Assembly: GCA_934660865.1 (NCBI GenBank)
Contig: CAKUIA010000020.1
Span: 14,619-46,618 of the forward strand
From: an uncultured Opitutales bacterium
GTDB lineage: Bacteria; Verrucomicrobiota; Verrucomicrobiia; Opitutales; Intestinicryptomonadaceae
Length of the DNA stretch: 32,000 nt
Direction of reading: 5' to 3'
Of this stretch, positions 505-28,342 are shown one piece after another; the first letter of the stretch is position 1, and every line of letters begins with the position of its first letter. The notes below the pieces were generated by a model, which saw nothing but the letters and a program-made list of their open reading frames with translations, was not told the origin of the DNA and searched no databases. The translations under genes and the position numbers were made by a program.

Positions 505-3500
505 TTACTTTCTGCGGCGGTATATCGCAAAGGCCAAAGCCAAAGCGCCGAATATTGCCGCCCATGTCGAAGGTTCGGGAACTTCGAATGTAACGTTAAA
601 GTTTGTGCCGTCTATCGAGAATGTGCCCTTGTATTTTTCCGACGTTTTTGCGTCTACATATTCGAATGTTTTGCCGGCCAACGACTTTAACGATTCGTTC
701 ATGTTCGCTTCGTCGGCAAACGAGATAAGCGTCATTTCAACATCAAGTTCTTCCATGTCGAAGCCCGAGAAGAAGAAGTCGGTGCTCAAAATGTTGCCGA
801 TTAGGGTGTTTTCGATATTGATTGTGTAGTCGGCCTGAGAGAAGTCGAAGGCCAGGTACCCGCCGTCGGCTTTGGTCAACGAATTAATATTCAACGAGCC
901 CGCAGCACCGAATGCCGCACCCGAAGCTATGGAAACATCGCCAACATTTGCGCTTGCAAGGAGCAATACGCCGCCGTTAACTGCAACCGAGCCGCCGTTA
1001 AGGTTGTTGTTTGTGCCCGAAAGAACCTGCGCATTTGTGCCCGTTTTTACAATGCTAATAGTGCTGTTTGTATTGTTGGCATAAATGTTGCCGGTGTATG
1101 TGCTTAACGAACCTACGTTGTTGCCGAACTGCAATGTGTAGTCTACATAACCGCCAGATTCGTTGCCGTAAATGCTGCCCGTACCGTTAAGGGTGCCTAT
1201 AACCGCCTTGTAGGCCGCTCTTTCTTCGGCTGTGCCCGTATACGAATAGCCAATCTTTAGGCGGCCGTCGTTCATGTTAAGTTCGCCGATATTTACGTTG
1301 TAGTCGGCCGACTTTGCAACACCGCGCAACTGCAACACGCCGTTTGCGTTAAGGGTTGCCTTGCCGATAGAGATATAGTCGCGGTCGTCGCCCGTGTTTG
1401 TGCCGTCTTTATTTACGGCGTATGTCGAGCCGTTCACCGTTACCCATACAGAATTTGCAGCGCTATCGGCGCCTATTGTCAATTCTTCGAAAGTGGTTTT
1501 TTCGAAGCTGTTGAATACGGTTTCGCAAGAACCGGCTTTGCTTGTGATATTGGCAGTGCCAAAATCCAAGTTCTTGGCCAGGAAATAACCGTTTTTATCG
1601 TTCTTATAGGCATAATTTATGTTCAAATTGTCTACCCTATAATCGGTACCATAGTAGCCTGCAACCGTGTTGTTGTACTCGTGGTCGACATTAAAAGCGG
1701 TTGTATCGATTACCAAGTTTTTAATTAAAATGCTGTGGGTATAGTGCGTGCCGAAGAAAATTCTCTGGCCGGATTTAAATGCACCTGTAAACTGTAAGTT
1801 GTCGATGGTTGCAACATTTGCAGTTGTTTTTGCCGTGTTAACGCGGGTTTGAACACTGTAGGTTGCGTCGGCAGTAGTTTCGCCGCCCTTAAGGACAAAT
1901 GTGCCAAAATGCGTTGTGGCAGTTGCCGCGTTAGAGGCGTTGCGGATATACAAATACTGATTGCCCAGCGTAGTGTCGCCTGCAAATGTAAGTTTGTTAA
2001 TGTCCAACTTATTGCCCGCCTTGATACGCGCGTGCCCCCAGTCTAGGTTGGCATTTGCATACGAGCTATCCAATTCGCCCATACCGCCAGCAATATTCAA
2101 TTCGTTTACATAAACGTCTTTGCCGTTTAGTTGGAAGAAATAGTCGCCGTAGGTCGAGCCGGGCACGCCGCCCGAATATTTGCCGTTACCTTTAAAGTTG
2201 ATAACGCCCAATATGTTAACGTCTGCCGAAGTGCCGCCGTCTACCTTGCTGCTAGAGGGGTTTATGTAGTTGATGTGGAACTTGTTTGTTTCGGCATTGA
2301 TAACGGCGTCGGCTGCCAATGTAAAGGCCGTGCCTTCGCTGCTTGTGGCAAACTGGCCGTCTTTAAACGTGGTTGTGCCGCTTAATGTGCCGCCGTAATA
2401 TTTAAGCAATGCGCCGTCGGTAAACGAAGCGTTTTCGGCAACGGCAGTGCCGCTCATATTCATCAAGCCGCCCTTTTGGGTGGAATTTACAAACTTGCCG
2501 CCGCTAAAGTGCGTTGTGCCGCCTACAATGGTTGTATCGCTTACAACTGCGCTGTCGTTGATATTTGTTGTACCTTCAACAGTTTCTTCGCCGTCGGTAA
2601 AGGTTTGCGTTATGGTTTTGCCGCTTGCCATAGAGGCGTTGGTTGTGCCCTTAATGGAAAGTGTACCGCGGTTGTTAATGTCGCCCAACAAATTGGCACT
2701 GGCAATATTGTTTATCAACAGGCTGCCGCCTTTGGCTATGTCTACATTGCCAATGTATGCGTTTTTAACTTCGCTGTCTATCTGCAAGGCCGAATTTGCG
2801 CCAACAGTAGAGGCCGCCAAAGAATTTAGCGTATAGCCGCTTTCGCTTTTGTCTACGCCAATTCTCAATTCGTTTATTGTACCCTGCCCGTTGCCGATTT
2901 TGAATGTTGCGGAGTTGTCGAAAGCAACGTCTACCCTGCCGAAATTGATGTAGTCGGCAGTTTTGCCTTTGTCGGTGTAAAATATAATGTTTTTGCCGCC
3001 GCCAATAGTCATTGTGTCGGCAACGTTCATTGTATTCTTGGAAGAATTTTCGCCTATAAAGTGGAATGTAAAGTTTGTATTTACATCGCTAGCGTTGCCG
3101 AAGAGATAGTCTTTTGCAAAGCTTATTGTTAAATTCTTTGCAAGAACATTGGCGCTGCCGTTGTGCAGACTCTGCAAAATTCTTTCCACATAGTTTGTTT
3201 TCGATACGGTTGTTTTTTCGGCGTCTTTATAGCCTGTTGTTACCATATCGTCGGTTGTGCCCTTTATCCAATACATCGGGTGCGAACCGTCGCCCGTTTG
3301 CCACGTTCCGTCTTCGTAAACCTGTTTCCAAGCGGCATCGTCGGCAACGTACTTATCGCCTTCGGTGTAGCCCGAAATTGTAACGTTGTCGTCAATAGTG
3401 GGGCTTCTGTGCACAGGATCTTTGTCTAGCACATAGTATTTTACGGTTGTGCCGTCTTCGTCGTAAACGGCAACGTATGTAGAGTCGGACGAATACCACA

Positions 3501-3624
3501 GCCTGCCGTCTCCATTATACGATGTATTGCCGTTGGCAATTTGCCTATATACTAAATCGGCACCCAAAGACACCGATGCTGCGGCTGCAAACACCGCAAA
3601 TATAGCTAATCTTGTTGTTTTCAT
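505..3624 (-). CDS. PEP-CTERM-anchored beta-helix surface protein, paralog 1 (1039 aa)
   Basis: Signal peptide MKTTRLAIFAVFAAAASVSLGA. The body is a G/N/T-rich repetitive beta-strand region. ISIVKTGTNAQVLSGTNNNLNGGSVAVNGGVLLLA resembles the autotransporter-associated beta-strand (PATR) repeat. The C-terminus VPEPSTWAAIFGALALAFAIYRRRK is a PEP-CTERM motif plus TM helix plus basic tail. It shares N-terminal (LAKNLT.SF) and C-terminal architecture with the ORFs at 19542 and 25526. Confidence 0.9.
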   Translation of the reverse strand: MKTTRLAIFAVFAAAASVSLGADLVYRQIANGNTSYNGDGRLWYSSDSTYVAVYDEDGTTVKYYVLDKDPVHRSPTIDDNVTISGYTEGDKYVADDAAWKQVYEDGTWQTGDGSHPMYWIKGTTDDMVTTGYKDAEKTTVSKTNYVERILQSLHNGSANVLAKNLTISFAKDYLFGNASDVNTNFTFHFIGENSSKNTMNVADTMTIGGGKNIIFYTDKGKTADYINFGRVDVAFDNSATFKIGNGQGTINELRIGVDKSESGYTLNSLAASTVGANSALQIDSEVKNAYIGNVDIAKGGSLLINNIASANLLGDINNRGTLSIKGTTNASMASGKTITQTFTDGEETVEGTTNINDSAVVSDTTIVGGTTHFSGGKFVNSTQKGGLMNMSGTAVAENASFTDGALLKYYGGTLSGTTTFKDGQFATSSEGTAFTLAADAVINAETNKFHINYINPSSSKVDGGTSADVNILGVINFKGNGKYSGGVPGSTYGDYFFQLNGKDVYVNELNIAGGMGELDSSYANANLDWGHARIKAGNKLDINKLTFAGDTTLGNQYLYIRNASNAATATTHFGTFVLKGGETTADATYSVQTRVNTAKTTANVATIDNLQFTGAFKSGQRIFFGTHYTHSILIKNLVIDTTAFNVDHEYNNTVAGYYGTDYRVDNLNINYAYKNDKNGYFLAKNLDFGTANITSKAGSCETVFNSFEKTTFEELTIGADSAANSVWVTVNGSTYAVNKDGTNTGDDRDYISIGKATLNANGVLQLRGVAKSADYNVNIGELNMNDGRLKIGYSYTGTAEERAAYKAVIGTLNGTGSIYGNESGGYVDYTLQFGNNVGSLSTYTGNIYANNTNSTISIVKTGTNAQVLSGTNNNLNGGSVAVNGGVLLLASANVGDVSIASGAAFGAAGSLNINSLTKADGGYLAFDFSQADYTINIENTLIGNILSTDFFFSGFDMEELDVEMTLISFADEANMNESLKSLAGKTFEYVDAKTSEKYKGTFSIDGTNFNVTFEVPEPSTWAAIFGALALAFAIYRRRK

Positions 3625-3705
3625 GTCGTTATTTATAAAATACGTATTTCTAGGATTGCGCGTATTTTTGACCGACCTACCTATTTTTGCAAGTATTTTT
3701 TATTC

Positions 3706-3720
3706 AAAAAAAAAAAAAAA
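3706..3720. repeat. A15 homopolymer (T15 in the orientation of the downstream gene), 82-96 nt upstream of the paralog 1 start codon
   Basis: Direct count: 5 A at 3706-3710 plus 10 A at 3711-3720. The flanks TTC and TGATT are the same as those of the A13 tract at 25421-25433. Confidence 0.9.
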
Positions 3721-3737
3721 TGATTAAAAAAATTACC

Positions 3738-3769
3738 CACGCTTTACTTTTAAAAAAAAGCAAAGCGTG
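3738..3769 (-). terminator. Strong hairpin, possible minus-strand terminator
   Basis: CACGCTTT (3738-3745) pairs with AAAGCGTG (3762-3769). The stem extends by CTTTT/AAAAG around an AAAA loop. On the minus strand it is followed by GGGTAA, then T7 (3726-3732), then T15. There is no T run on the plus side. Confidence 0.4.
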
Positions 3770-4190: not shown

Positions 4191-4241
4191 TTTTTCCTAC
4201 CCACTTTTTCAAAAAAGTTTTTTAGGGCGGGTTAGGTACGC

Positions 4242-4272
4242 AAAAAGGCCGCAGGTAAAACTGCGGCCTTTT
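4242..4272 (-). terminator. Rho-independent terminator after the giant gene (symmetrical, could act in both directions)
   Basis: GGCCGCAG (4247-4254) pairs with CTGCGGCC (4261-4268) around a 6-nt loop. It is flanked by A5 on one side and by TTTTGGGGTTTTT on the other. It lies about 65 nt beyond the stop at 4337. Confidence 0.75.
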
Positions 4273-4336
4273 GGGGTTTTTAAGAGTGGTTGTTTTTTGC
4301 GCGGTGGTTAGCTTGCGCTATTTTTGCGCGCAAATA

Positions 4337-10018: not shown

Positions 10019-10042
10019 TTGCGTTTAGAATAGTGTAAATAG

Positions 10043-10531: not shown

Positions 10532-10588
10532 AATCTAATTGGGCGACTTTTTAGATAAACCCCAAAGAGAGCGGGGGTTCAGCCAAAA

Positions 10589-10624
10589 GGGGCTTAAAAA
10601 ACTGTTTGCACTAAGCCCCGTTTT
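10589..10624 (+). terminator. Hairpin plus T run between the EEP remnant and folA
   Basis: GGGGCTTA (10589-10596) pairs with TAAGCCCC (10612-10619) and is followed by GTTTT. A second, weaker hairpin AACCCC...GGGGGTT lies at about 10558-10579. Confidence 0.5.
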
Positions 10625-10644
10625 GCGCCATAAAGCGTGCCCAT

Positions 10645-15441: not shown

Positions 15442-16548
15442 CTACAAGCTCTCGGTAAGAGAAAGCAGGTCTTTTAGGTAATACACTGTTTTTGCACGCC
15501 CCGCCCCCTTTTCGTATACTGATATGATTTTTTTCTCCGACAATTTTTGCAGAAGATTATACATTGTAGCTTTCGAAGGCTTGCTGGAAACCTTTAGCGA
15601 CGATTGCGTAAACATGGGGTTTGCAACCATCGCGTCTAGCAGTGGCACCGCATGTTGCGACGAAGTTGCGCCGATAATCTCCGACTTGGTTTTTTCGTAG
15701 TAGCCTATTATGTCTTTGGCAATTTTATAGTTTTTGTCGGCCTGCCATTTTATCGCGTCCAAGAAAAACTCTATCCACTGCGTCCAGTTGCCGAGGGCGG
15801 TTATGGCGCGCAAAGAGTCTTTATAGGCCATTTCGTTTTTATCCAAATATTGGCTTATATATAGCGACGGCGTTGCAATAATATTTTTCTTGTACAAAAA
15901 CAAAGGAACAAGCATTCGCCCAAGTCTGCCGTTGCCGTCGCAAAACGGGTGTATTATCTCGAACTGCGCATGCAAAACGGCGGTTTGCGCCAAAAGGTCT
16001 TTGTCGTTTATGCAAAGGTAGTCTATAAAATTATCCATATATTCGGGCACAATAAGAGGGTCGGGCGGAACATAGCGCGCGTTTTCTATACCGCCGCTTT
16101 TCGAGCCTATATAGTTTTGAATTTCCCTTATTTTGCCAGGGCTTTTAGACTTGCCGCGAACGCCGTCCAATAAAATCGTGTGTAACTCCTTTATCAACGA
16201 AAGCGAAATCGAGCGGTTTTCCAACGATTCGGTACCGTGTATAAGAGCCTTTTTGTAGTTCAGAACTTCGTGAATATCGTCTTTTTTTTCTTCCGAATCG
16301 TCTCCTATGTTTGCCTGATATTTCAAAACGTCTATAGTATCGGCTTGCGTTCCCTCTATTTTGCTAGACAATACCGCTTCGTTGTCGACAAGCGGCGAAA
16401 GCAGCAAGTTGGCGTTTGGCATTACATTTAAAATGCCGTTAAAATTCGACACCGCTCTATTCGCCTCGCCCATTTTCGGTACAAGACTAGTCCAATCTAT
16501 AGAATTCAAGGGAAGTTTTTGCGGAATAAAAGGTTTCATTATACCCAT
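15442..16548 (-). CDS. Fic family protein 1 (class II, AMPylase-type motif) with a C-terminal winged-helix domain
   Basis: The Fic motif HPFCDGNGRLGR fits H.F.(D/E)GNGR..R. The N-terminal inhibitory-helix motif SSKIEG fits (S/T)xxxE(G/N). The C-terminal KATMYNLLQKLSEKKIISVYEKGAGRAKTVYYL looks like a wHTH. I prefer the ATG at 16548 (MGIMKPF) or 16539, because the 25 extra codons of the tracked ORF (to 16623) merely read through the palindrome array. Confidence 0.85.
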   Translation of the reverse strand: MGIMKPFIPQKLPLNSIDWTSLVPKMGEANRAVSNFNGILNVMPNANLLLSPLVDNEAVLSSKIEGTQADTIDVLKYQANIGDDSEEKKDDIHEVLNYKKALIHGTESLENRSISLSLIKELHTILLDGVRGKSKSPGKIREIQNYIGSKSGGIENARYVPPDPLIVPEYMDNFIDYLCINDKDLLAQTAVLHAQFEIIHPFCDGNGRLGRMLVPLFLYKKNIIATPSLYISQYLDKNEMAYKDSLRAITALGNWTQWIEFFLDAIKWQADKNYKIAKDIIGYYEKTKSEIIGATSSQHAVPLLDAMVANPMFTQSSLKVSSKPSKATMYNLLQKLSEKKIISVYEKGAGRAKTVYYLKDLLSLTESL

Positions 16549-16567
16549 AATATACAATAATCGGCGC

Positions 16568-16788
16568 TTTTGTGTCAAGCAAAAGGCGGTTTTGTTAGAC
16601 ACAAATATGCTTGTGTCTAACAAAAAGGGTTTTAATTAGACACAAAACATTTTGTTTCTAATTAAATAGACTCTATTGAATTTGTGTCTAACAAAAGTGC
16701 GTTTGGTTAGACACAAAGTATTTTGAGTCTAATAGAATAAACACTAGCAAGTTTGTGTCTAACAAAAGTGCGTTTGGTTAGACACAAA
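16568..16788. promoter_or_regulatory. Array of four 37-bp palindromes (half-site TTTGTGTCTAAC, 13-bp spacer) plus degenerate half-sites, directly upstream of fic1
   Basis: TTTGTGTCTAAC-AAAAGTGCGTTTG-GTTAGACACAAA is identical at 16681-16717 and 16752-16788. Diverged copies lie at 16611-16647 and 16568-16605. Extra half-sites are TTTGTTTCTAAT (16651) and TTTGAGTCTAAT (16722). The unit period is about 70-71 bp. Confidence 0.7.
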
Positions 16789-16831
16789 ATAAAATCGGGC
16801 GCGCAAAACTTTTAAACGGTTTTTGCAAAAA

Positions 16832-17938
16832 CTAAAGCAATTCTTTTACGGCTTCTTCGCCGCCCGAGCACATAATGTTGTATACACAGTTCCTTAACAC
16901 GCGCATTCTGTGGTGGTTGTCCAGCCTTTTTATAAGGGCTACGCTTGCTTTGCCGTCGCCCGCCATGGCGAATGCGGTTGCGGCATACATAACATAGTTT
17001 ACCCTGTCGCGCTTTGTGTCTAAAAATTGCCTGTCGCTTAGCGAAAGCGCTTTGTAGTGCGCATACAGCGCCTCGCGCCCGTTTGCCTTTGCCACAAACG
17101 CATATAGCGGGAAAGTTGCATTATACCACTTTTCGCCGTTTTGCGTTATCGGGAAAACCCAAGCCGAGCCTATCGCCTTTTCCTCCGATTTTCTTATGTC
17201 GTCTTGGCTGTCGCTTTTCGGGAAAGAGTCGTAAAACCAAAACAAACACCAATACAGCGTTCTGGCCTCTTTGTCGAAATCGGCGCGTTTTGCAATCCAG
17301 CTTTTCCTTAAATAATCCATAAGCGGCCTGTTTTTTGTCTGCCAATAAAGCTCCAGCAATCTTTCGTTAGACCAACTCGACTTGCCAAGCAGTTTCTCGA
17401 ATGCCGCAAAATTGTTTGTATCGCCCAAAATACGCATAACCCTTGCAGTTTGGCGCACCGACACCATATTTTCGCACGAATCTACCGCCTTTTGCGCAAA
17501 AATATCCCTGTTTTTAATGTCGCCTTTCTTTGCGTATATTTGCGAAAGTTTTGCGTATACCAAAGCCGCATACTCTTTGTTTTTAAGGAAATCCGCCCGC
17601 GAAGCGCATACCGCCAACGGCGCGTTTTGGTTTTTTATGTCGTAATTTAGCAGCAAATAGCGGTATAAAGACCTGTCGTAGTCGCCCTCTTTTGCGGTTT
17701 GCGGCAAACCCTTAATTTGCCGTAAATATTTTTGCGAGGCCCTTGCAATTTTTTTGTTGTGCGTGCCAACTATCCGCCCCAAACATAGCTCCAATTCCGG
17801 CAAATTTTCGCTTTCGGCATAATATATGCACATTTGCGCCAACACGTTGTCTTTGTCTAGGCTGTGCGAATTTTTTATGTCGAACCCAACAAGCGCCGCA
17901 ATTAGGCAACACACAATAAAAAACAGTTTTTTAAGCAC
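16832..17938 (-). CDS. Signal-anchored all-helical (TPR/Sel1-like) repeat protein, function unknown
   Basis: I prefer the GTG start at 17938 (VLKKLFFIVCCLIAALVGF, a hydrophobic N-terminus). This gives an 8-nt overlap (GTGCTTAA) with the stop of the upstream gene. The tracked ATG at 17989 would overlap that gene by 59 nt. Helical repeat-like segments include EYAALVYAKLSQIYAKKGDIKNRDIFAQKAV. Confidence 0.65.
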   Translation of the reverse strand: MLKKLFFIVCCLIAALVGFDIKNSHSLDKDNVLAQMCIYYAESENLPELELCLGRIVGTHNKKIARASQKYLRQIKGLPQTAKEGDYDRSLYRYLLLNYDIKNQNAPLAVCASRADFLKNKEYAALVYAKLSQIYAKKGDIKNRDIFAQKAVDSCENMVSVRQTARVMRILGDTNNFAAFEKLLGKSSWSNERLLELYWQTKNRPLMDYLRKSWIAKRADFDKEARTLYWCLFWFYDSFPKSDSQDDIRKSEEKAIGSAWVFPITQNGEKWYNATFPLYAFVAKANGREALYAHYKALSLSDRQFLDTKRDRVNYVMYAATAFAMAGDGKASVALIKRLDNHHRMRVLRNCVYNIMCSGGEEAVKELL

Positions 17939-19301
17939 CTTTGCCCCCTTTCGACAGCGAATTTGCGCCCAGCACCAGCGCAACGGCAAAGAAAACCATA
18001 ACGGGCAAAAAGTGCATTGCCATATCCATGCACGAGTGCGCGCCGCAAATAGCCGCCGAGACCAGCAGCATATAGTTTTCGGCGGAAAGATTTTTTATGT
18101 TGCAAAAAAGCAAAACTGCATATGCAACAAAGCCGCCAAAAACGCCCAAAAACCCAATAAAACCGAATTCTATAAGATATTCTAAAATGTCGCTATGCGC
18201 CCTTTCGGGCACCGAAATTTTTGCGCCGCCCGTTTTTAGCAGCTCTTTTTTTGCCTTTACGGGCAGCGCATATTTGCAACATTCGCCGCCGACGCCCCAC
18301 AGCGGGTTTTCGCGGATAAGCGCAATGGCGAACTTATGAAACTGCAGCCTTGAAGAAAGCGATGCTCTTAATTCTGTTCGCTTTATTTTTGCGCTTTCGC
18401 CCGAAAGGCGGTGCGCCGCTTCGTTGTAGGCTAAAAATGCAAAACCCAAACCGCACATTGCAACAATAAGGGCGGCCGCCCAAACATTCATTGCGCGCCT
18501 TAAAAAAACATACAGCGCAATAGCGGCAAAAGCGGCGCAGTTTGCGACGGCAAAACCAATAGCCCCCGCAGATTGCGACTTGCAGGCTCCGCATACGCAA
18601 ACCGCTGCCGAAAGCGCGAATAATAGCGAATAAAAAATATGCCTTCTTTTTGCGTGGTATATAAGCAAGCTAAGGCAAAAGCCCAAGCCCAAATTTATGA
18701 ATGCGCCCGACACGTTCGAAACAAACGAGTTTGCGTAGAAGTCTGACGTTGCCGCAAATATGCCGTAAAGCCACGCAAAGCCGAAATATTTTTCTACTAT
18801 GCCGTAGGCGGCGCACAAAACGCCGCAAAAGGCTGCAAAATTCAACACATACAGAGCATTGCCCCGCTTTTTGCATACAAAAAACAAACTAAGCACGGTT
18901 AAAAAAACCGTTGTAAGTTTGCAAAGGCTTGCCAACGCGTTCACGTTTTCGGCTGGAGTTTTTACCGACTTTGGCAAAAACGGAATGTGAGGCAAATTGT
19001 TAAGCAAAAAGTAGCCGTCGGCTATCTCGAATTCGGCATAGCAGTTAAAATATTGAACAACGCAAACCGCGGCGGTATATAGCGCGCAAAAAACAATGCG
19101 TTTTTCGAACGCGCTTGGCGCATATTTGCAAAAGGCCGCGGGCAAAAACGCCAAAACAGCCGCCAAAAAGCAGGGATACACAAAAATTTCGCGCGAATTT
19201 GGCGCCCAAAACGCGCAAACAAAAAGCGAAAAAAGCAACAAGGCAAGGCTTGTTTTGTTTTGCGGGGAAAGTCTTTGGGCGTTGTCCATATAATTACGCA
19301 A
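17931..19301 (-). CDS. O-antigen ligase / Wzy_C-like polytopic membrane protein
   Basis: 456 aa with about 10 or more hydrophobic segments. There is a periplasmic-loop signature SRLQFHKFAIALIRENPLWGVGGE...PERAHSDILEYLIEFGFIGFLG. It matches the family pattern R..w..a...i..nP..G.G.G ... aH(N/S)..L(e/q).l.E.G..G. Confidence 0.7.
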   Translation of the reverse strand: MRNYMDNAQRLSPQNKTSLALLLFSLFVCAFWAPNSREIFVYPCFLAAVLAFLPAAFCKYAPSAFEKRIVFCALYTAAVCVVQYFNCYAEFEIADGYFLLNNLPHIPFLPKSVKTPAENVNALASLCKLTTVFLTVLSLFFVCKKRGNALYVLNFAAFCGVLCAAYGIVEKYFGFAWLYGIFAATSDFYANSFVSNVSGAFINLGLGFCLSLLIYHAKRRHIFYSLLFALSAAVCVCGACKSQSAGAIGFAVANCAAFAAIALYVFLRRAMNVWAAALIVAMCGLGFAFLAYNEAAHRLSGESAKIKRTELRASLSSRLQFHKFAIALIRENPLWGVGGECCKYALPVKAKKELLKTGGAKISVPERAHSDILEYLIEFGFIGFLGVFGGFVAYAVLLFCNIKNLSAENYMLLVSAAICGAHSCMDMAMHFLPVMVFFAVALVLGANSLSKGGKGA

Positions 19302-19445
19302 GTTAGAGAATTTACGGCACGCCTATTAGTCAAACAAAAAAGCATTTTTGCGGCATAAGGGCTTAATATGTTCCGTATTTTTTTGCTTTTTTGGCCCCGC
19401 AAAGCCCGAATTGCATATCGCCTTAATTTACAAGTAGTTGCATTT

Positions 19446-19497
19446 TTCAAAAAAAAAAAAAATACCTTTGACATTCCGGACATAAAACGATTATTTT
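19446..19497 (+). promoter_or_regulatory. A14 tract fused to a candidate sigma70-type promoter of PEP-CTERM paralog 2
   Basis: TTC, then A14 (19449-19462), TACCT, TTGACA (19468-19473), an 18-nt spacer containing ATAAAACG (19482-19489), then TATTTT (19492-19497). The ATG is at 19542. Confidence 0.5.
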
Positions 19498-19541
19498 GGA
19501 AGGGCAAAAACAATAATAGCTAATTGTATATACACAAGATT

Positions 19542-22376
19542 ATGAAAAACATAAAAAACACATTGGCATTGTTGCCAATATTCATAGCTTCGGCAGCCTT
19601 TGCCGCCGACTACGTATACATACAAACAGCCGGCAGCGGCGGCCACACCGCCTGGAATAACGGCAACTACTACCTTGCAAGCGACGTTATGACCGACGGC
19701 AAGATAGACATCGAAAAGGTAAAGAACGCAAAAACTGCGGGCATAAACACTCCATCGGCCAGCGACAACGTATTCTTCGGCACCTACACCGGCTCGCTAG
19801 ACGCAACTTCTCCCGAAGTTACCAACGCAAACGGCGACACTGTGTGGCAGATGTACTACACCTTCCACAACAACACGGCGGCAATTCTTGCGCAAAACCT
19901 GACTTTTAGTTTCGATTACGACCAAATTTTCAGAAACCAAACCGCGCACCACGACTACGAAATTTACACAAATAGCGCAGCTTCCACAACGCTTACCGAC
20001 AAGAGCCGCAATGTAATACAAATAGGCGACACCCTTTCGGTTTTGGGCGGCACTTTGGTAAATATACACGGCATTGCAAACCGCTATTCAGGCGAAAATG
20101 TTTTGGAAAACTACGCCAACTATTCGCTTATAGACATAAACAAGCTTTACCTTGAAACGACCGACTCGGCCGAAAACGCGCAGGCGGCTTTAACCCTTGG
20201 CAACTACATAGAGGAAATCCGCATAGGCGTAAACAAGGTGGGCGACGCGTACGAATCTAACGGCGTTGCCTCCGAACTTAAAAAGAACACAAAGCTTAGC
20301 ATAGGCGGCACCACCTACGAAGAACATACCGGCAATTATTTGGGCGACGTTAACAACGCGGGCGACATTTTAATTAACGGCGGCAACTTCTACGGCGTTG
20401 GCACCATAAACAACGCGGCCGACAGCGAAAACATAGGCCAGGTTCGCATTGGCTCGAACGGCTCGGTAAAATCGCTAAACGTTGCGGGCGGCACATTGCT
20501 GTATGGCGGCGCCGAAGTAGACGGCAAAATAACGCTCGACAATGTTGCGTTTAAAACGTCGAACACCAACACAAAGCTGAACTTTACGGCAAACAGCTCC
20601 ATAGACGCCACAACAAACCAATTTTGGGTAAACTTTTCGCCCACGGCGGGCGGCAACCCCGTTTACGACGGCACAAAGACAGCCGACGTGAATATGCTTG
20701 GCGTATACAACCTAAAAGGCACGGGCGAATACGGCGAGCTTTACAATAACGACCGCTCCCTGCAGCAGGTTCTTATTGCGGGCAACAACATTGCCATAAA
20801 CGAAATTAACTTCTTGGGTAATTTCAATATGACAAAGGCCACAATAGACTACGGCAATATGATTTCGGCAAACAGCAGCCTGAACATAAACAAGCTTTCC
20901 ATTTCGTCGGGCGGCTACACCGTAGGCACGCAATACCTCTTGGTAAGGTCGGTAGGCGAATTGAATATCGGCACGCTCGACTTTGTAGGAGCAGCCGACG
21001 CAGCCGACGCCGTAAATAGCTCGAACTACATTCGCATATACAACTGGTTTAAGGGTATAACTGCAAAGATAGACAATATCAACGTTACAGGCTATTCAAA
21101 AGCGGCCGACACCCTCGGGTTCCACAGCACTTCAAGCGTGGAAATCGGCAACTTGAATATCGAAAGAACATTTGCCATAGACCAACAGCAAAACCCTGAC
21201 GTAAGCAAATACCAGGGCACCGAAGCTACTATAGGCAACATAAACAGCAACCTTGTAAGCAACTCGGGCAACTCGGCCTGGAACTTAAGGAAGCTAACCG
21301 TTACGGGCGACGCCGTATTTTCGAACGCTACAAGCAGCCAGCACTACACCCAGGTTATACTGTTTAAGAATGCGGATTTCCAGGGCACCCTAACGGTTGG
21401 CGGCGAAAACGACACGGCCACAACCTTCCTGCAATTCGAAAGCAGAACCTACACAAAAGACAGCTCGACAGGCGAAGTTATAGACGAACGCGCGGCCCAC
21501 ACATTCAACAACGTTGTTGTAAACCAAAGAGGCACGGTTTACTTCGGCGGCGTTAGAGCCGACGACAACAGCTTCGACACAACCGTAAATTCGCTGACAT
21601 CTAAAGGCAATGTACGTTTCGGTTGCGGCACTAGTGTAGACACATTCGCAAAGATTGGCACTCTTAACGGCACGGGCGGCACTTTGGGCGCCTACGGCGA
21701 AAAAGGCAGGGCATTAACCCTTGTTTTGGGCGACAACGTTGCGGGAACAAGCACATACTACGGCACCATTTTCGACAACACGCACGAAAACGACGTTGTA
21801 AACATTGTTAAAAACGGCACAAACCGCCAAATTTTGGCAGGAGCAAGCAACACCATTAAAGGCACAATTACCGTAAACGAAGGCATGCTGGGCTTTGCCT
21901 CTAAATCGAAAGTTGCAAGCATTAACCTAAACGGCGGCGAATTTGCAAGCTGGAACGGCGCTTCGGCCAACGCCCTTAGCATTGGCACGCTTAATATGAA
22001 CGGCGGCAAATTGCACTTCGATTTCAACACAGCCTTAAACTCGGCATTGTCTTTTGCGCAAGGCAGCGACATTATCGGCAAAATTTTGTCGAGCGACTTT
22101 ACTTTCGCCAACATTGTGCAAGACAGCTCCTATATGCTCTTTAGCTTTGAAGACGGCTCTTTAAACAGCTACCTACAAGCCCTTATAGACAGCGAAGACA
22201 ACGGCCAATACCAGTATATAGACAAAGCCACGGGCAAAACCTATATGGCAAAGTTTGCAAGCGAATTGGAATCGGGCGAATTTAGCGTAACATTCACCGT
22301 TCCCGAACCCGCAACTTGGGCCGCAATTTTCGGCGCTTTGGCATTGGCCTTGGCCATTTACCGCCGCCGCAAATAG
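19542..22376 (+). CDS. PEP-CTERM-anchored beta-helix surface protein, paralog 2 (944 aa from the MKNIKN start)
   Basis: Signal peptide MKNIKNTLALLPIFIASAAFA. PATR-like segment VNIVKNGTNRQILAGASNTIKGTITVNEGMLGFA. C-terminus VPEPATWAAIFGALALALAIYRRRK. The start at 19542 aligns with paralog 3 (MKNISK); the tracked start at 19524 adds 6 codons. Confidence 0.9.
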   Translation: MKNIKNTLALLPIFIASAAFAADYVYIQTAGSGGHTAWNNGNYYLASDVMTDGKIDIEKVKNAKTAGINTPSASDNVFFGTYTGSLDATSPEVTNANGDTVWQMYYTFHNNTAAILAQNLTFSFDYDQIFRNQTAHHDYEIYTNSAASTTLTDKSRNVIQIGDTLSVLGGTLVNIHGIANRYSGENVLENYANYSLIDINKLYLETTDSAENAQAALTLGNYIEEIRIGVNKVGDAYESNGVASELKKNTKLSIGGTTYEEHTGNYLGDVNNAGDILINGGNFYGVGTINNAADSENIGQVRIGSNGSVKSLNVAGGTLLYGGAEVDGKITLDNVAFKTSNTNTKLNFTANSSIDATTNQFWVNFSPTAGGNPVYDGTKTADVNMLGVYNLKGTGEYGELYNNDRSLQQVLIAGNNIAINEINFLGNFNMTKATIDYGNMISANSSLNINKLSISSGGYTVGTQYLLVRSVGELNIGTLDFVGAADAADAVNSSNYIRIYNWFKGITAKIDNINVTGYSKAADTLGFHSTSSVEIGNLNIERTFAIDQQQNPDVSKYQGTEATIGNINSNLVSNSGNSAWNLRKLTVTGDAVFSNATSSQHYTQVILFKNADFQGTLTVGGENDTATTFLQFESRTYTKDSSTGEVIDERAAHTFNNVVVNQRGTVYFGGVRADDNSFDTTVNSLTSKGNVRFGCGTSVDTFAKIGTLNGTGGTLGAYGEKGRALTLVLGDNVAGTSTYYGTIFDNTHENDVVNIVKNGTNRQILAGASNTIKGTITVNEGMLGFASKSKVASINLNGGEFASWNGASANALSIGTLNMNGGKLHFDFNTALNSALSFAQGSDIIGKILSSDFTFANIVQDSSYMLFSFEDGSLNSYLQALIDSEDNGQYQYIDKATGKTYMAKFASELESGEFSVTFTVPEPATWAAIFGALALALAIYRRRK

Positions 22377-22840: not shown

Positions 22841-22946
22841 AACTACAAGTTTTTACAAAAATTGTAGTTGCAACATAATATTTTGCTTATTAGCTTTATA
22901 CAAAAAATATCTTGACAAACTACCAGTTTAAACAAAAGTTGTAGTT
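22841..22946. promoter_or_regulatory. Two related palindromes (ACTAC[A/C]A-N13-TTGTAGT) upstream of and abutting the fic2 start
   Basis: Palindrome A spans 22841-22869 (ACTACAA 22842-22848, TTGTAGT 22862-22868; 12 of 14 pairs). Palindrome B spans 22918-22946 (ACTACCA 22919-22925, TTGTAGT 22939-22945). Their centres are 77 bp apart. TTGACA lies at 22912-22917. Palindrome B ends 1 nt before the GTG start. Confidence 0.6.
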
Positions 22947-24293
22947 GTGAAAATTCCCCAACAGCCACCAGCTTTGCAAAACATTGCCGAATTTTTAAAA
23001 CACAAAAAAATCGACATTGCAAATCTGCTTGCATTAAACTTTGACGAAAGCGCATATCTTAGTTATTCGGATACCAAATACAGGCCGCTTCCGCCGCAAA
23101 TAGCCGAATTAAAAGGCAACAGAGAAGTTTGGTGGGCTGCCATTGCGCTAAAGCGCTCGGCAAAATTTAAAAACCTGCCCCTATGCGACAAAAACGGCAA
23201 GCCGTTTAAGTTTTTTCTGGACAACTGCGATTTGCAATTATTGCACGAATTAGACCTAAACGCAAAAGACCTTTCGCATATACAAGCCGGCCTTGACGAC
23301 AACGGCAAACTCTCGAAATATATTTTCGAATCGTTAGTGGAGGAATCGTTTTCGTCCAGCGCAATAGAGGGCGCGCTTTCTACGCGCGACTTGGCAAAAA
23401 AAATGATTGCCGAGAAACGCCCGCCAAAAGACAAAAGCGAACAAATGATTTTAAACAACTTTTCGGCAATGCAAAGCCTTATCGGCTGCATAAACGAACC
23501 GCTAACTGCCGCTTTAATCTGCAAAATACACGCGCAAATATGCGAAAAAACACTGCCTTACTTCCAGCTTGGCGTATTTAGAACGCAAAATTCGCAAGAC
23601 ATTGTTGTAGGCGACGACGCCGGAAATATTTACCATACCCCCTGCCCGCCCGAAAGCGTGGCGAATATGATAGAAGATTTATGCGATTTTGCAAATTCGC
23701 AAACCGCGGGCGAAGACTTTATACACCCCATAATAAAGGCCGCAATAATACATTTTTTCTTTGCATACATACACCCGTTTTACGACGGCAACGGCAGAAC
23801 GGCGCGCGCGTTGTTTTACTGGTATCTATTAAAAAACGGCTACGAAATTGCAAAATTCATTTCCGTTTCGAAAATAATTTCGCAGACGGGAAACCGCTAT
23901 TATCAGGCGTTTTTAGACACCGAAACCGATTATAACGACCTAAACTACTTCATAAAATTCCAGTTGGAAATCTTAAACAGGGCAATAAAGGCATTTGCCG
24001 ACTACGCAAAACAAAAAACCGACAACTTCAACAAAGCCCTTTTTAAATTTAAAATTCCCGACAACCTTAATTACAGACAGTCCGAAATTTTACTGAAACT
24101 TTTGCAGGAAAACCCTTTCGATTTTGAATGTACGATTCTTTCGCACGCAGCCGTCAACAACATTTCTTGGGAAACTTCGCGCAAAGACCTTGCAGCGCTT
24201 TTAAAACAAAACATTTTAAAGCGCGTAAAATCCGGCAAAAAATTTGTCTTTAGGGCATCTAACGAAATCATAGAACGCGCAAAAAACCCGTAA
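22947..24293 (+). CDS. Fic family protein 2 (class II, AMPylase-type motif) with a C-terminal winged-helix domain
   Basis: 448 aa with a GTG start; there is no in-frame ATG for 160 codons. The Fic motif is HPFYDGNGRTAR and the inhibitory motif is SSAIEG. The C-terminal region YRQSEILLKLLQENP...ISWETSRKDLAALLKQNILKRVKSGKKFVF is wHTH-like. Confidence 0.85.
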   Translation: MKIPQQPPALQNIAEFLKHKKIDIANLLALNFDESAYLSYSDTKYRPLPPQIAELKGNREVWWAAIALKRSAKFKNLPLCDKNGKPFKFFLDNCDLQLLHELDLNAKDLSHIQAGLDDNGKLSKYIFESLVEESFSSSAIEGALSTRDLAKKMIAEKRPPKDKSEQMILNNFSAMQSLIGCINEPLTAALICKIHAQICEKTLPYFQLGVFRTQNSQDIVVGDDAGNIYHTPCPPESVANMIEDLCDFANSQTAGEDFIHPIIKAAIIHFFFAYIHPFYDGNGRTARALFYWYLLKNGYEIAKFISVSKIISQTGNRYYQAFLDTETDYNDLNYFIKFQLEILNRAIKAFADYAKQKTDNFNKALFKFKIPDNLNYRQSEILLKLLQENPFDFECTILSHAAVNNISWETSRKDLAALLKQNILKRVKSGKKFVFRASNEIIERAKNP

Positions 24294-24294
24294 T

Positions 24295-25227
24295 ATGCAA
24301 AGCAAAGAGTATCAGTGGAAGATTTTTAGCGACAGGCAGCTTAAGCTTTGGCCGCCAAACAATATTCCCACCTACCTTAATTTTGCGGAGGAAAGCTTTT
24401 TCCACAAATCGCTGGATTGGGGGCAAAACGTAGCATTTCCACCTTTGTTTACAAACAAAATTTGGGAAAAATTTTCGATACTGTCGCTGGGGCATGTGTG
24501 CCATACAAAGGGCTTTTACCACTCGCGCCAGCAAAACCCCTACATAGACATAATTTTTGTGGCCAGCGGCAAATTCGGCGCAAAATTCGGCAAAAAAAAG
24601 CTTTTGTTGACAAGCGGGCAAATGCTTGTAATTACGCCAAATAGCCAGTGCGATACCTTTGTAAACGGCCGCAGCGCGTTTGTGTATTGGGCGCACCTAA
24701 AGCCCGTAAAATATTGGCAGTGCCTGCTAAAAAAGCAGCCATTTGCGGTAAAAATCGACTGCCTAGACCTGCTTGCAAGCATTTTGCAGGGCTACGAGCT
24801 GGAACTTTTTTCGCAAAAGCCCTCGCCTTTTATTTTAGAGCAGTTTGCGGGCATTTTTGCCCATGTCTTAAGAAGGCAGCTTTGTAAAAATCCGGGCAAA
24901 GGCGAAGCGCAAAACAACCCCATTTTGCATGCCTATGCCGAAAGCATTGCGCAAAATCCAAAAGCTGCGTTGCCAATAAAGGAATGTGCAAAAAAGTTCG
25001 ACATTCAAACAAGGCAAATAGACAAATTTTTTGCCGACAATTTTTCGCTTAGCTACAGCAAATATGTTTCGGCAAAGAAAATGGCAAAGGCGCTGGAATA
25101 TTTAAACACCCCGCTAACAAACGCACAAATTGCCGAAAAGCTGGGCTATGCCAACGCATTTTCGTTTTCAAAGGCGTTCCGTTTATTCTACAAAAAGTCG
25201 CCTAAATTTGTAAAAGCGCAAATGTAG
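24295..25227 (+). CDS. AraC/XylS-family transcriptional regulator
   Basis: 310 aa. The ATG lies 1 nt after the fic2 stop codon. The C-terminal HTH is LTNAQIAEKLGYANAFSFSKAFRLFYKKSPKFV, the AraC signature GF.....FS+.F+..(F/Y)G.SP. The N-terminal region is cupin-like. Confidence 0.85.
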   Translation: MQSKEYQWKIFSDRQLKLWPPNNIPTYLNFAEESFFHKSLDWGQNVAFPPLFTNKIWEKFSILSLGHVCHTKGFYHSRQQNPYIDIIFVASGKFGAKFGKKKLLLTSGQMLVITPNSQCDTFVNGRSAFVYWAHLKPVKYWQCLLKKQPFAVKIDCLDLLASILQGYELELFSQKPSPFILEQFAGIFAHVLRRQLCKNPGKGEAQNNPILHAYAESIAQNPKAALPIKECAKKFDIQTRQIDKFFADNFSLSYSKYVSAKKMAKALEYLNTPLTNAQIAEKLGYANAFSFSKAFRLFYKKSPKFVKAQM

Positions 25228-25417: not shown

Positions 25418-25467
25418 TTCAAAAAAAAAAAAATGATTTGACAGTGTGCAATAAAACGGTTTACATA
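25418..25467 (+). promoter_or_regulatory. A13 tract fused to a candidate promoter of PEP-CTERM paralog 3
   Basis: TTC, then A13 (25421-25433), TGAT, TTGACA (25438-25443), ATAAAACG (25451-25458), then a weak -10 candidate TACATA (25462-25467). The ATG is at 25526. The leader shares AGCTAATT with the paralog 2 leader. Confidence 0.45.
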
Positions 25468-25525
25468 TTAAACGTTTTAAAGATTTAGCTAATTTTTTAA
25501 GATTAACACACATATAACAACAAAA

Positions 25526-28342
25526 ATGAAAAACATATCAAAAATACTGGCAGTTTTGCCTATTCTTGCAGCGTCTTCGGCGTTTGCCGAAAGCTATGTT
25601 TACATGCAAACGGCAAGTTCGGGCCACACAGCCTACAACAACGGCTCGTGGTACAAAACTTCCGACGTTATGGATGCCGACGGAAATATCGACACATCGC
25701 TAATACCCGATGTTGCCCGTGCCGGCATTGCCAAACCCTCTATAGACGACGACGTATTTTTCGGAACCTACGTTGGTTCCGCTTCGAGCGAGTCTACACT
25801 GGTAAACAAAAACGGCGAAATCGTTTACACAATGACGGAAATGTTGCACAACGCAAATTCGCCCGTTTTGGCTAAAAACCTTACTTTTAAATTCGACTAC
25901 GCGGATAATTTTAGAAGCTCTAGCACGGGAGTATCCTACAAATTCCAAACAGATGGCGCAGGCACTACAAACGAAGAAAACAACACTATAACCGTTGCCG
26001 ACACCCTTTCGGTTTTGGGCGGCAAAGAAGTTAGATTCTACGGCCAGAAAAACGACGCCAACACGGGTGTATTCCGCAACTACAAGCTTATAGACTTAGG
26101 CCGCGTGTATTTGCAAACAACCGACACGGCTTCGGAAGACGCAAAGGCGCAGTTGACCTTTGGCGACTATATCGAAGAAACCCGCATTGGCGTAAACAAG
26201 ATAGGCGAAAGCTACGAATCTAACGGATTAGTATCGGAGCTTAAAGACGGAACCGTTCTCAATTTGGGCGGCTCGAACTACGACAACCACACGGGCATTT
26301 ATTTGGGCGACGTTAAAAACGCCGGCACAATTAACATTCAAGGCGGCACCTTCTACAACGTAGGCACAATAGAAAACAGCGGCACGCTTTCGGTAAGGAA
26401 CAATGCCGTTGTTAAAAACGCAAGCGTAAACGGCGGCGCTTTCCGCATGGAAGGCGGCAGCTTAGACGGCACGCTTAACCTTACAAACGCATCGTTTTCG
26501 ACCAAAAACGGCTTTGCCGCAAACTTTGGCGACAACACCGTTGTAAACGCAACCGTTAAAGACGGTTTTTGGGTAAACTTTAACGCAACGCAAGGCTCTA
26601 CCGAAAATTACGACGGCGACAGAAACCAAGACGTTGTAATGGGCGGCATATACAACCTTAAAGGCTCGGGCGAATACCTAACCTACAGCAACGGCAAGAT
26701 AATTCAGCAAGTTTACATTTCGGGCAAAACCATAAAGATCAACGAACTGAACTTGTTGGGCAACTTTGCCTGCAACGGCGGCGTAGACCTTAATATGACT
26801 ATCAATGCGGCCAACGGCATAGACATCAACAAAATGACTATTGCAGGTTCCGACAGCACAGCGGTTGACGCGGCAAAGAACCAAATGGGCAGAATTACAT
26901 CGGGCGGCAACATAAACATTGGCGCTCTCGAATTTAAGGGCGGCGCCGACGCCGACAACAAGTTGGGCAAGATAGAATTTCGTATCTACAACAACAATAG
27001 CGACGCAAACCAAGTAAGCATTAACGACTTGAAGTTTACGGGCTATTCTTCCGACGGCAACTACTTAAGCCTATTTGGCACACGCAACATAACGGTAGAC
27101 AATGTAACCGCCGAAAAAACATTTGTTGTTCAGCAGGAACACAATAGCGGCAATGCCTCGTATTACCCCGGCACGGTTGGCAAGTTTGGCGACATTACCT
27201 TAAACCAAACAAACTATACCACCGACTCTTCCAGATTCGACCTAAAACAGATAGACGTTTCGGGCACGGTTTCGCTAAAGAATATTGCAGGCGATAAAAT
27301 GCTTTATGTAGATTTCTACACCTATGTTAACACCAACATAGAAAACCTTATTGTGGGCGGCAGCGATTCGTTGGGAACTATGTGCGCACGTTTCCACGGC
27401 AGAGACTACATCACTTCGGCCGGAACAGAAGACCTACGCACAACCGACACCTTCGGCACGGTTACCGTAAACCAAAGGGGCACGGTTTACTTTGGCGGCA
27501 GGCAGAACAACGGCGAAGAATTTTCGACGACAATTAAAAGCGCAACGGTTAACGGCGGCACAATGTTCTTCGGACAAGATACAAAGGCGGGCGAAACATT
27601 TGCGGCCAAAATCGGAACCCTTGCGGGCACAAGCGGCCAAGTTGGCATGTTCGATACCGCAACCCAAAACGCCGACAAAAGAACCCTTAACCTGACGTTC
27701 GGCACCGAAACTAAGGGCACAAGCGTATTCTACGGCCGTGTTCACGACACAATGCACGCCAACGACTATATCAACATAGTTAAAAACGGCGCAAACACCC
27801 AAATCTTGGCGGCGCAAGACAACTCGATTAAGGGCACAATTACCGTAAACGAAGGCAAATTGGGCTATGCCTCGAATAGCAAGGTTGAATCGGTTACCGT
27901 AAACGGCGGCGAATTTGCAAGCTGGAACAGCTCTAGCTGGCTTAGCATTGGCACGCTTAATATGAACGGCGGCAAACTGCACTTCGACTTTAATACCTCG
28001 ATAAACTCTACATTGTCTTTTGCGCAAGGCAGCGACATTATCGGCAAAATTTTGGAGGGCGATTTTACTTTTGCCAACATTGTAACCGATACTTCCTACA
28101 TACTCTTTAGCTTTGAAGACGGCTCTATGAACAGCTACCTGCAGGCCCTCATAGACGGCGAAGACAACGGCAAGTACCAGTATATCGACAAAACCACGGG
28201 ACAAACCTACATGGCAAAGTTTGCAAGCGAAGCTGAATCGGGCGAATTTAGCGTAACGTTCAGCGTTCCCGAACCCGCAACCTGGGCCGCCATATTCGGC
28301 GCGTTGGCATTGGCTTTGGCCGTTTACCGCCGCCGCAAATAG
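25526..28342 (+). CDS. PEP-CTERM-anchored beta-helix surface protein, paralog 3 (938 aa)
   Basis: Signal peptide MKNISKILAVLPILAASSAFA. PATR-like segment INIVKNGANTQILAAQDNSIKGTITVNEGKLGYA. C-terminus VPEPATWAAIFGALALALAVYRRRK. It is collinear with paralog 2 along its whole length. Confidence 0.9.
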   Translation: MKNISKILAVLPILAASSAFAESYVYMQTASSGHTAYNNGSWYKTSDVMDADGNIDTSLIPDVARAGIAKPSIDDDVFFGTYVGSASSESTLVNKNGEIVYTMTEMLHNANSPVLAKNLTFKFDYADNFRSSSTGVSYKFQTDGAGTTNEENNTITVADTLSVLGGKEVRFYGQKNDANTGVFRNYKLIDLGRVYLQTTDTASEDAKAQLTFGDYIEETRIGVNKIGESYESNGLVSELKDGTVLNLGGSNYDNHTGIYLGDVKNAGTINIQGGTFYNVGTIENSGTLSVRNNAVVKNASVNGGAFRMEGGSLDGTLNLTNASFSTKNGFAANFGDNTVVNATVKDGFWVNFNATQGSTENYDGDRNQDVVMGGIYNLKGSGEYLTYSNGKIIQQVYISGKTIKINELNLLGNFACNGGVDLNMTINAANGIDINKMTIAGSDSTAVDAAKNQMGRITSGGNINIGALEFKGGADADNKLGKIEFRIYNNNSDANQVSINDLKFTGYSSDGNYLSLFGTRNITVDNVTAEKTFVVQQEHNSGNASYYPGTVGKFGDITLNQTNYTTDSSRFDLKQIDVSGTVSLKNIAGDKMLYVDFYTYVNTNIENLIVGGSDSLGTMCARFHGRDYITSAGTEDLRTTDTFGTVTVNQRGTVYFGGRQNNGEEFSTTIKSATVNGGTMFFGQDTKAGETFAAKIGTLAGTSGQVGMFDTATQNADKRTLNLTFGTETKGTSVFYGRVHDTMHANDYINIVKNGANTQILAAQDNSIKGTITVNEGKLGYASNSKVESVTVNGGEFASWNSSSWLSIGTLNMNGGKLHFDFNTSINSTLSFAQGSDIIGKILEGDFTFANIVTDTSYILFSFEDGSMNSYLQALIDGEDNGKYQYIDKTTGQTYMAKFASEAESGEFSVTFSVPEPATWAAIFGALALALAVYRRRK

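Follow-up and report, generated by a model that had tools for sequence, protein, structure and literature searches.

Long poly(dA:dT) tracts upstream of the predicted promoters of three PEP-CTERM surface-protein paralogs in an uncultured Opitutales bacterium

A 32,000-nucleotide stretch of DNA from an uncultured Opitutales bacterium (Verrucomicrobiota; contig CAKUIA010000020.1, positions 14,619 to 46,618), which we call the window, encodes three paralogous surface proteins of the PEP-CTERM class, p1, p2 and p3. The start codon of each paralog is preceded, at a distance of 80-95 nt, by one long homopolymer of A or T. Our analysis revealed that these tracts are a real and non-random feature, that they lie close to the predicted promoters, and that they are tied to this paralogous family. 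We suggest that they are maintained, hypermutable poly(dA:dT) elements that may tune the transcription of each paralog gradedly and independently, a reading to which we assign a probability of roughly 45%.

When homopolymers longer than 8 nt were counted mechanically in the window, exactly three were found, A15, A14 and A13, and all of them are runs of A on the plus strand (Table 1). The next-longest runs, three A8 and one T8, are 8 nt in length, and no run of 9-12 nt occurs in the window, which leaves the length distribution empty between 8 and 13 nt. An original prediction, made from the sequence of the window, had claimed that its only three long homopolymers each lie 5' of a PEP-CTERM paralog, and the census agrees with it. 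A first-order Markov model gives 0.26 expected A/T runs of at least 13 nt against the three observed, and none of 100 dinucleotide shuffles attained the observed A13 match count, indicating that these slippable homopolymers (at least 9 nt) stand far above chance, as is expected of contingency promoters. If three intergenic positions were drawn at random, each paralog would have one of them in the 150 nt upstream of it with a probability of about 3e-4, a figure that overstates independence because p2 and p3 have a duplicated upstream region in common. When runs of at least 9 nt were counted in the syntenic loci that were fetched from the same species and from a sister species (species A and B below), no others turned up.

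The layout around the tracts was then read from the sequence. At p2, the A14 tract is followed by TACCT, a predicted -35 hexamer TTGACA, an 18-nt spacer, the -10-like hexamer TATTTT and the ATG, which matches the originally predicted layout exactly. This predicted promoter of the sigma-70 type scored 10/12 in a consensus scan and was the only one of the three that the scan called; its orthologs keep TTGAC[AG] and TAT.T. at the two hexamers. The sequence at p3 reads TTC-A13-TGAT-TTGACA, again with an 18-nt spacer, and its promoter, with the candidate -10 hexamer TACATA, was not called by the consensus scan because the -10 ends in A. Both spacers carry the block ATAAAACG, which starts 8 nt after the -35 hexamer at p2 (19482-19489) and 7 nt after it at p3 (25451-25458), so that the earlier claim of a p2-type module at p3, with this block 7-8 nt after the -35 hexamer, holds. 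The stretch from the p3 -35 hexamer to the ATG shows 93-99% identity across strains and the sister species; this region is better conserved than the coding sequence. The shared tract-promoter module does not extend to p1. As p1 is encoded by the minus strand, its sense strand carries the tract as T15, and GAAT-A6-TAC separates this tract from the -35-like hexamer TTGCAA. The predicted p1 promoter, which likewise has an 18-nt spacer and a -10 hexamer of the TA... type, fails the criteria of the consensus scan, and AAAAAA(A)TACTTGCAAA is kept in all p1 orthologs.

The distance between tract and predicted -35 hexamer is 4 nt at p3, 5 nt at p2 and 13 nt at p1, and 11 and 24 nt at two loci of a third species (L013 and L014, described below). 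Most genes in the window have a run of A5-7 located 2-5 nt upstream of a TTGnnn hexamer (e.g. 10019-10100, 10560-10644 and 22880-22946), and this layout suggests that promoters of this Opitutales lineage generally carry A-tracts resembling the proximal part of an UP element. The long tract takes the position of the A5-7 run at p2 and p3, while at p1 and L014 an A6 run is retained and the long tract lies farther upstream. None of the three tracts in the window lies between the -35 and -10 hexamers, as a tract of the spacer type would; all three are upstream of the -35 hexamer. Since they lie there, at variable distance, their length cannot alter the spacing between the two hexamers, and a clean ON/OFF switch is not to be expected.

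The tracts were compared with those of related genomes. Homologs were few and came from metagenome-assembled genomes (MAGs) of Opitutales, several of them from Hadza human-gut metagenomes; the loci fetched are referred to by L-numbers. The housekeeping flanks of L001 are 98.3-98.6% identical to those of the window, and those of L002, L003, L004 and L092-L094 are about 90-91.5% identical. We refer to the window and the L001 group as species A, to the relatives with flanks of about 90-91.5% identity as the sister species B, and to the MAG CAKTSY as species C, a more distant third species whose other paralogs share the C-terminal ~200 aa. In species A, the p1 tract (sense strand) is T15 in the window and T14 in L097; in species B it is T12 in five loci (L004, L005, L006, L007 and L010), T10 in L008 and L009, and T4CT7 in L012. 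The p2 tract is A14 in the window and L091 and A13 in L001, and in species B it is A13 (L002 and L096), A12 (L092) or A6 (L003). The p3 tract is A13 in the window and L001 and A14 in L091, and in species B it is A13 (L002 and L096), A14 (L092), the degenerate AAGAAAATATA (L093) or A6-TATA (L094 and L095). When L091 was aligned with the window over 16,475 nt, there were no mismatches and only one gap, which is a single A in the p3 tract. A comparison of tract lengths in related genomes had been proposed with the original prediction, and it turned out that the lengths differ between strains at p1, p2 and p3. Variation among close strains is what a contingency promoter should show, with the caution that differences of 1 nt are possibly technical.

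Several observations concern the quality and meaning of these alleles. Three of the eight p1 contigs shown start at or inside the T-tract (L008 1-16, L009 1-16 and L011 1-10), and L008 and L009 have an identical start base, 6 nt ahead of the tract. These contig starts fit mixed tract lengths in the samples or, equally, a collapse of read quality at the homopolymer; they mean that assemblies can break there and that the tract length is easily mis-called. We considered whether the A6 of L003 is a homopolymer collapse from long reads and rejected this, as the MAG is a MEGAHIT (k141) Illumina assembly. Two of the three short or degenerate alleles accompany a frameshifted gene, and there are counter-cases, namely L092 p2 (A12 with a nonsense mutation) and L093 (degenerate tract with an intact gene), so the association of short tracts with dead genes is weak. 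Two variable-gap pattern scans of the JGI metagenome contigs found no match to the p3 or p1 alleles, and the organism seems to be absent from this collection. Exact look-ups of the window p2 and of P0005 gave no match.

The DNA that flanks the tracts has diverged between species A and B, with 58-68% identity at p1 and p2 and 79-93% at p3, and yet the long tracts are uninterrupted and 12-15 nt in length in both species. At a divergence like that of the flanks, the probability of 12 unchanged sites is about 0.003, indicating that something maintains the length and purity of the tracts. In species C, an A13 tract (L013) and A15 and A13 tracts (L014) were found 50-110 nt upstream of three further paralogs, and their flanks, ATTC-A(n)-TA[ACG]CCT, are those of p2. 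An independent sample of 79 loci (713 kb) from a genome scan showed an enrichment. A homopolymer of at least 10 nt lies no more than 150 nt upstream of 5 of 79 PEP-CTERM open reading frames (ORFs) and of 2 of 352 other ORFs (Fisher p = 0.003).

Two of the five enriched cases are poly-G runs inside a predicted -35/-10 spacer, G12 in L042 (4131-4142) and G11 in L063 (336-346). They lie upstream of other PEP-CTERM genes in two gut Opitutales MAGs, with the predicted promoters TTGATT-N18-TATCGT and TTGATT-N18-TATTTT, respectively. The lengths of a T-run and the G-run compensate at both loci to give a total spacer of 18 nt. Judged from their position, these unrelated poly-G promoters are candidates for a classical spacer-type switch within the PEP-CTERM class. 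The same sample contains an A27 run 19 nt before the ATG of a 362-aa non-PEP-CTERM gene (L059 6287-6313, Intestinicryptomonas porci Cla-KB-P66). Apart from the artefact-looking C63 at the contig end of L026, no homopolymer in the 713 kb is longer, and because the strain has been cultured, the A27 run is experimentally accessible.

The proteins encoded downstream of the tracts belong to one family. All three have a signal peptide and a C-terminal VPEP[SA]TWAAIFGALALA.A.YRRRK motif, and they score 21.1 (p1), 18.6 (p2) and 18.4 (p3) bits against the NCBIfam PEP-CTERM model TIGR02595, above its cutoff of 16; with the Pfam model PF07589 they reach 17-19 bits, under its cutoff of 20.7. The autotransporter beta-strand repeat model TIGR02601 matches p2 and p3. 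Over their full length these two share ~50% identity, which rises to 72-88% in the last 180 aa, and p1 and p2 share about 28-33% identity. The 3' ends of the p2 and p3 genes (21743-22376 and 27715-28342) show 84% DNA identity over ~640 nt, with 23-50% identity in the protein middles, which suggests either that a C-terminal module is conserved or that the paralogs have undergone gene conversion. The AF2 model of p2 (pLDDT 76) has an N-terminal signal helix and a C-terminal membrane helix (925-943), and all that lies between them is beta structure. When it was compared with the PDB using Foldseek, the top matches were beta-helical adhesins and autotransporter passengers, none of them significant (best E = 0.026), and the model suggests that p2 may be beta-helical and adhesin-like. 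Scans with Pfam and NCBIfam detected no exosortase (EpsH/Xrt) gene among the proteins of the 32 kb window.

Among ~11 distinct p2 and p3 alleles we found three independent inactivating mutations, all in strains of the sister species: a TCG-to-TAG nonsense mutation (L092 p2), a 5-nt deletion and a frameshift by one additional G (GG to GGG). Inactivation through coding repeats was rejected, since long repeats are not involved in any of the three mutations. Surface proteins that experience fluctuating selection typically show such a pattern, which lends indirect support to the graded-tuning reading.

Among known systems, the closest mechanism is the 'rheostat' of Helicobacter pylori sabA, in which a T/A tract is adjacent to the -35 hexamer (Aberg et al. 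2014, PMC4081817). In that organism, tracts of at least 9 nt near the -35 hexamer give a multiphasic output with a period of ~10 bp through alpha-subunit contacts of the UP-like type (PMC4081817). Strain 26695 has 25 such loci, 15 of them for outer-membrane proteins, and the tracts occur in A and T orientations and are sometimes common to divergent promoters (PMC4081817). The same paper quotes the E. coli UP element consensus and notes that upstream repeats commonly work via trans-factors (PMC4081817). The tracts of the window resemble this system in many respects. They are A/T tracts of at least 9 nt that lie within 20 nt upstream of the -35 hexamer (5, 4 and 13 nt from the predicted hexamers of p2, p3 and p1), they have the typical lengths of 13-16 nt, they occur in A or T orientation and sometimes in divergent intergenic regions, surface or outer-membrane paralogs are over-represented downstream, and their length varies between strains. 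What differs is the setting, PEP-CTERM/exosortase substrates in Verrucomicrobiota (Opitutales) here and Hop outer-membrane proteins in the sabA type. The mechanism class itself is well known, while the phylum and the protein class are different.

Other promoter homopolymers fit less well. The homopolymers of Neisseria meningitidis porA and opc are switches of the spacer type. The original prediction had named the vlp promoters of Mycoplasma and the fim promoters of Bordetella as precedents, and these proved to be a poor fit because the poly-A tract of Mycoplasma hyorhinis vlp lies between the -35 and -10 hexamers (PMC2268961) and the C-stretch of Bordetella fim overlaps the functional promoter (PMC1891110), while the tracts of the window are upstream of the -35 hexamer and outside the spacer. 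All of these systems have in common with the window a homopolymer in the promoter of a variable surface-protein gene and slipped-strand mispairing as the source of mutation, but their tract length sets the spacer geometry and thereby ON/OFF states. In an UP element, the C-terminal domain of the RNA polymerase alpha subunit contacts upstream A-tracts. Both UP elements and the tracts of the window are A/T-rich at about -40 to -60, and A6-N3-TTGnnn in the window resembles a proximal UP subsite; UP elements, however, are short, mixed in A and T, and fixed in length, whereas the tracts are pure homopolymers of 13-15 nt that vary between strains. In eukaryotic promoters, poly(dA:dT) and other unstable repeats provide transcriptional evolvability by excluding nucleosomes. 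They are likewise rigid, fast-mutating promoter homopolymers, and expression is scaled by their length, but nucleosome exclusion is inapplicable to bacteria. In the literature that we searched, no paper ties PEP-CTERM/exosortase substrates to repeat-driven variation, in keeping with the novelty remark of the original prediction, and an Akkermansia genome paper mentions only homopolymers inside coding genes.

The graded-tuning reading can be set out as follows, in conditional form. A selectively maintained tract would stand beside the promoter of each large, beta-rich, exosortase-sorted surface protein of this human-gut Opitutales bacterium, at the place of the UP-type DNA with which the RNA polymerase alpha subunits make contact in E. 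coli and H. pylori. A homopolymer of 12-15 nt would slip during replication, so that even close relatives among the cells may come to differ in its length by one or a few bases, and every change of length would rotate and shift the DNA on the upstream side of the tract with respect to the core promoter. The result would be a graded rheostat for each paralog, as at sabA and other outer-membrane protein genes of H. pylori, and no ON/OFF switch; the length changes may be reversible and may be of adaptive use. The original prediction had proposed that length changes tune or switch each paralog. Its basis, tracts that are non-random, promoter-proximal and strain-variable, stands, whereas its switching part finds no support, as a clean ON/OFF state is unexpected when the promoter spacing is unaffected. 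The combinatorial surface variation that it envisaged could arise if the paralogs were tuned independently.

Here, we need to consider a number of points that weigh against this reading. The distance from tract to -35 hexamer ranges over 4-24 nt and the tract is inverted at p1, so that a single precise geometry cannot be assumed. All three promoters are predictions, and a simple consensus scan missed two of them. By inspection of the aligned regions upstream of the tracts, no clearly phased A-boxes common to p2 and p3 were seen, only recurring TTGCA[AT] hexamers. Differences of 1 nt at A13-A15 can be Illumina or assembler errors. The T10 alleles of p1 were down-weighted, as the tract stands only 6 nt away from the contig end in both L008 and L009. 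Over 6 kb, L008 (T10) shows no other difference from L007 (T12), and the two are possibly re-assemblies of one sample. Over ~10% genomic divergence the long alleles range only from 12 to 15 nt, and every long allele of p3 has 13 or 14 nt. Such clustering is closer to what a maintained optimum with slight drift would give than to free switching, and the length ranges of p3, p2 and p1 fit a fixed optimum as well as a switch. The spread (12-15 nt and the collapsed A6) is also much narrower than the 'great length variability' reported for the tracts of H. pylori.

The main rival, and a serious one, is a static alternative, in which the tract is an UP-like, rigid A-tract that gives strong constitutive transcription and its length drift is a functionless by-product of slippage. 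As most genes of the window carry A5-7 at 2-5 nt upstream of TTGnnn, the tracts at p2 and p3 look like an enlarged version of a normal feature; A6 alleles occur with otherwise intact promoters (L003 and L094), the degenerate AAGAAAATATA stands beside an intact gene (L093), and the clustering of long alleles at 12-15 nt across sister species is as expected of a stabilised optimum. We regard this alternative as somewhat unlikely nonetheless, because a 6-nt run suffices at all other promoters of the window, and a hypermutable run of 13-15 nt kept pure in surroundings of 58-68% identity would be a costly way to build a static element. The p1 and L014 promoters have both a proximal A6 and a long tract farther out, which argues that the long tract is more than an enlarged UP subsite, and the tracts are restricted to one fast-evolving and often pseudogenised family of surface proteins. 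It is clearly less probable that the tract serves as a spacer of variable length, separating RNA polymerase from an activator site farther upstream; tract length would then set the helical phasing and gate activation. The repeat upstream of N. meningitidis nadA is the model for such an arrangement. A candidate activator is an AraC-family regulator that is encoded next to p3 in synteny in every strain and has a sub-cutoff match to a surface-antigen regulator, and another would be a factor that binds the hexamer TTGCA[AT], which recurs at p2, p1, L013 and L014. Against both candidates, there is no defined binding site; the hexamer is only a 6-mer in AT-rich DNA, its spacing is inconsistent and it is lacking near the tract of p3, and p1 is not accompanied by a regulator gene.

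For locus 1 it could also be argued that T15 is the extended U-tract of an upstream terminator hairpin, which would insulate p1 from read-through. A conserved hairpin on the same strand does lie 17 nt upstream, followed by GGTAATTTTTTT, and it shows a compensatory change between species (CACGC..GCGTG vs CACAC..GTGTG). This hairpin, however, has its own T7, and T15 starts 17 nt past the stem, too far for intrinsic termination, while at the tracts of p2, p3 and the sister species the sense strand carries A and a hairpin is absent; we therefore hold the terminator role to be very improbable. Least credible of all is that the runs are sequencing or assembly artefacts or chance low-complexity DNA. 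Homopolymers of this length are error-prone, and the p1 contigs that start at or inside the tract (3/8) would agree with an artefact, but over 10 independent assemblies by different assemblers (SPAdes NODE_, MEGAHIT k141/k99 and Logan), covering three species, agree on where the tracts lie, and only 0.26 runs are expected per window by chance. This recurrence effectively excludes an artefact.

The positions of the features are collected in Table 1, and several observations on the neighbourhood of the tracts can be added. The best NCBIfam match of the AraC-family gene upstream of p3 is the YSIRK surface-antigen regulator, below the cutoff of that model, and its position beside p3 is syntenic in L001, L002 and L091-L096; we infer that an AraC-type protein may act at these promoters. 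In the window (22947-24293), L091 and L092, a Fic-domain gene separates p2 from the AraC gene; L001, L002 and L096 lack it. The Wzy_C gene has a TTGACT of its own on the opposite strand, ~105 nt from the A14 tract. Recurring TTGCA[AT] hexamers are candidate factor-binding sites; at p2, p1, L013 and L014 they lie 6-35 nt upstream of the long tracts, and L013 contains the direct repeat ATTGCAACA-N6-TTTGCAACA. A conserved leader motif, AGC[CT]AATTGTATA[AT]AC or TAGCTAATT, stands 10-35 nt before the start codon in several paralogs from different species. The hairpin upstream of p1 lies ~570 nt past the stop codon of the nearest upstream gene on the same strand in the window; an AAA_14/DUF4143 ATPase gene is found upstream of p1 in L004 and L097 and is missing from the window (site ~4190-4340). 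At 16555-16808, upstream of a Fic/Fic_N gene (15442-16548), about eight TTAGACACAA / TTGTGTCTAA boxes with a 71-nt period, many of them inverted pairs, form an array with the appearance of multiple operators. By eye, no convincing sigma-54 -24/-12 motif or ECF-type promoter was found around ATAAAACG, and Rfam and tRNA scans of the window gave no matches.

Table 1. Positions of tracts, predicted promoters, genes and motifs (window coordinates unless another locus is named).
Feature	Locus	Position	Strand	Remarks
Paralog 1 (p1)	window	505..3624	-	1039 aa; PEP-CTERM; TIGR02595 21.1 bits
A6-TAC-TTGCAA	window	3687..3701	-	proximal A-tract and p1 -35-like hexamer (TTGCAA at 3687-3692)
T15 tract (A15 on plus strand)	window	3706..3720	-	p1 sense strand; 13 nt upstream of -35-like TTGCAA
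Terminator-like hairpin	window	3738..3769	-	conserved; 17 nt upstream of T15; terminator scan: 14 pairs, then GGTAATTTTT
Wzy_C (O-antigen-ligase-like) gene	window	17931..19301	-	Pfam Wzy_C; divergent from p2, intergenic region with A14 common to both
A14 tract	window	19449..19462	+	5 nt upstream of predicted p2 -35
Predicted p2 promoter, sigma-70 type	window	19468..19497	+	TTGACA (19468-19473), 18-nt spacer, TATTTT (19492-19497)
Paralog 2 (p2)	window	19542..22376	+	944 aa; ATG at 19542; signal peptide, all-beta body, PEP-CTERM tail
AraC-family regulator gene	window	24295..25227	+	directly upstream of p3; Pfam HTH_18
A13 tract	window	25421..25433	+	4 nt upstream of predicted p3 -35
Predicted p3 promoter	window	25438..25467	+	TTGACA (25438-25443), 18-nt spacer, TACATA; read from sequence
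Paralog 3 (p3)	window	25526..28342	+	938 aa; PEP-CTERM
TTGCA[AT] sites	window	19415-19447, 3687-3692		
TTGCA[AT] sites	L013	3590-3615		
TTGCA[AT] sites	L014	3340-3350, 5880-5890		
Leader motif	window	19520-19535, 25493-25501		
Leader motif	L014	~3070-3090		leader of minus-strand gene
Inactivated p2/p3 ortholog	L092	1157-3997		
Inactivated p2/p3 ortholog	L003	9130-11773		
Inactivated p2/p3 ortholog	L094/L095	3829-6652		

To our knowledge, nearly all described cases in which promoter repeats drive phase or rheostat variation come from pathogens (such as Helicobacter, Neisseria, Bordetella and Mycoplasma), and we know of essentially nothing on the regulation and function of PEP-CTERM/exosortase substrates. 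A bolder possibility, which we consider rather doubtful at present, is that gut Opitutales have a true contingency system on exosortase-sorted surface proteins, in which each beta-rich paralog of ~650-1040 aa would have its own hypermutable homopolymer; poly(dA:dT) beside the -35 hexamer in species A, B and C and poly-G inside the spacer in related MAGs would both be part of it. If this were true, every cell lineage would express a different mix of paralogs in the gut. Surface variation driven by repeats would then be described for the first time in Verrucomicrobiota, and likewise for PEP-CTERM proteins. If phase or rheostat variation were confirmed here, it would mean that an uncultured gut commensal of a poorly studied phylum uses promoter-repeat variation of the pathogen type, and it would mark the paralogs as likely targets of host immunity or phages and provide a cheap metagenome marker of strain dynamics.

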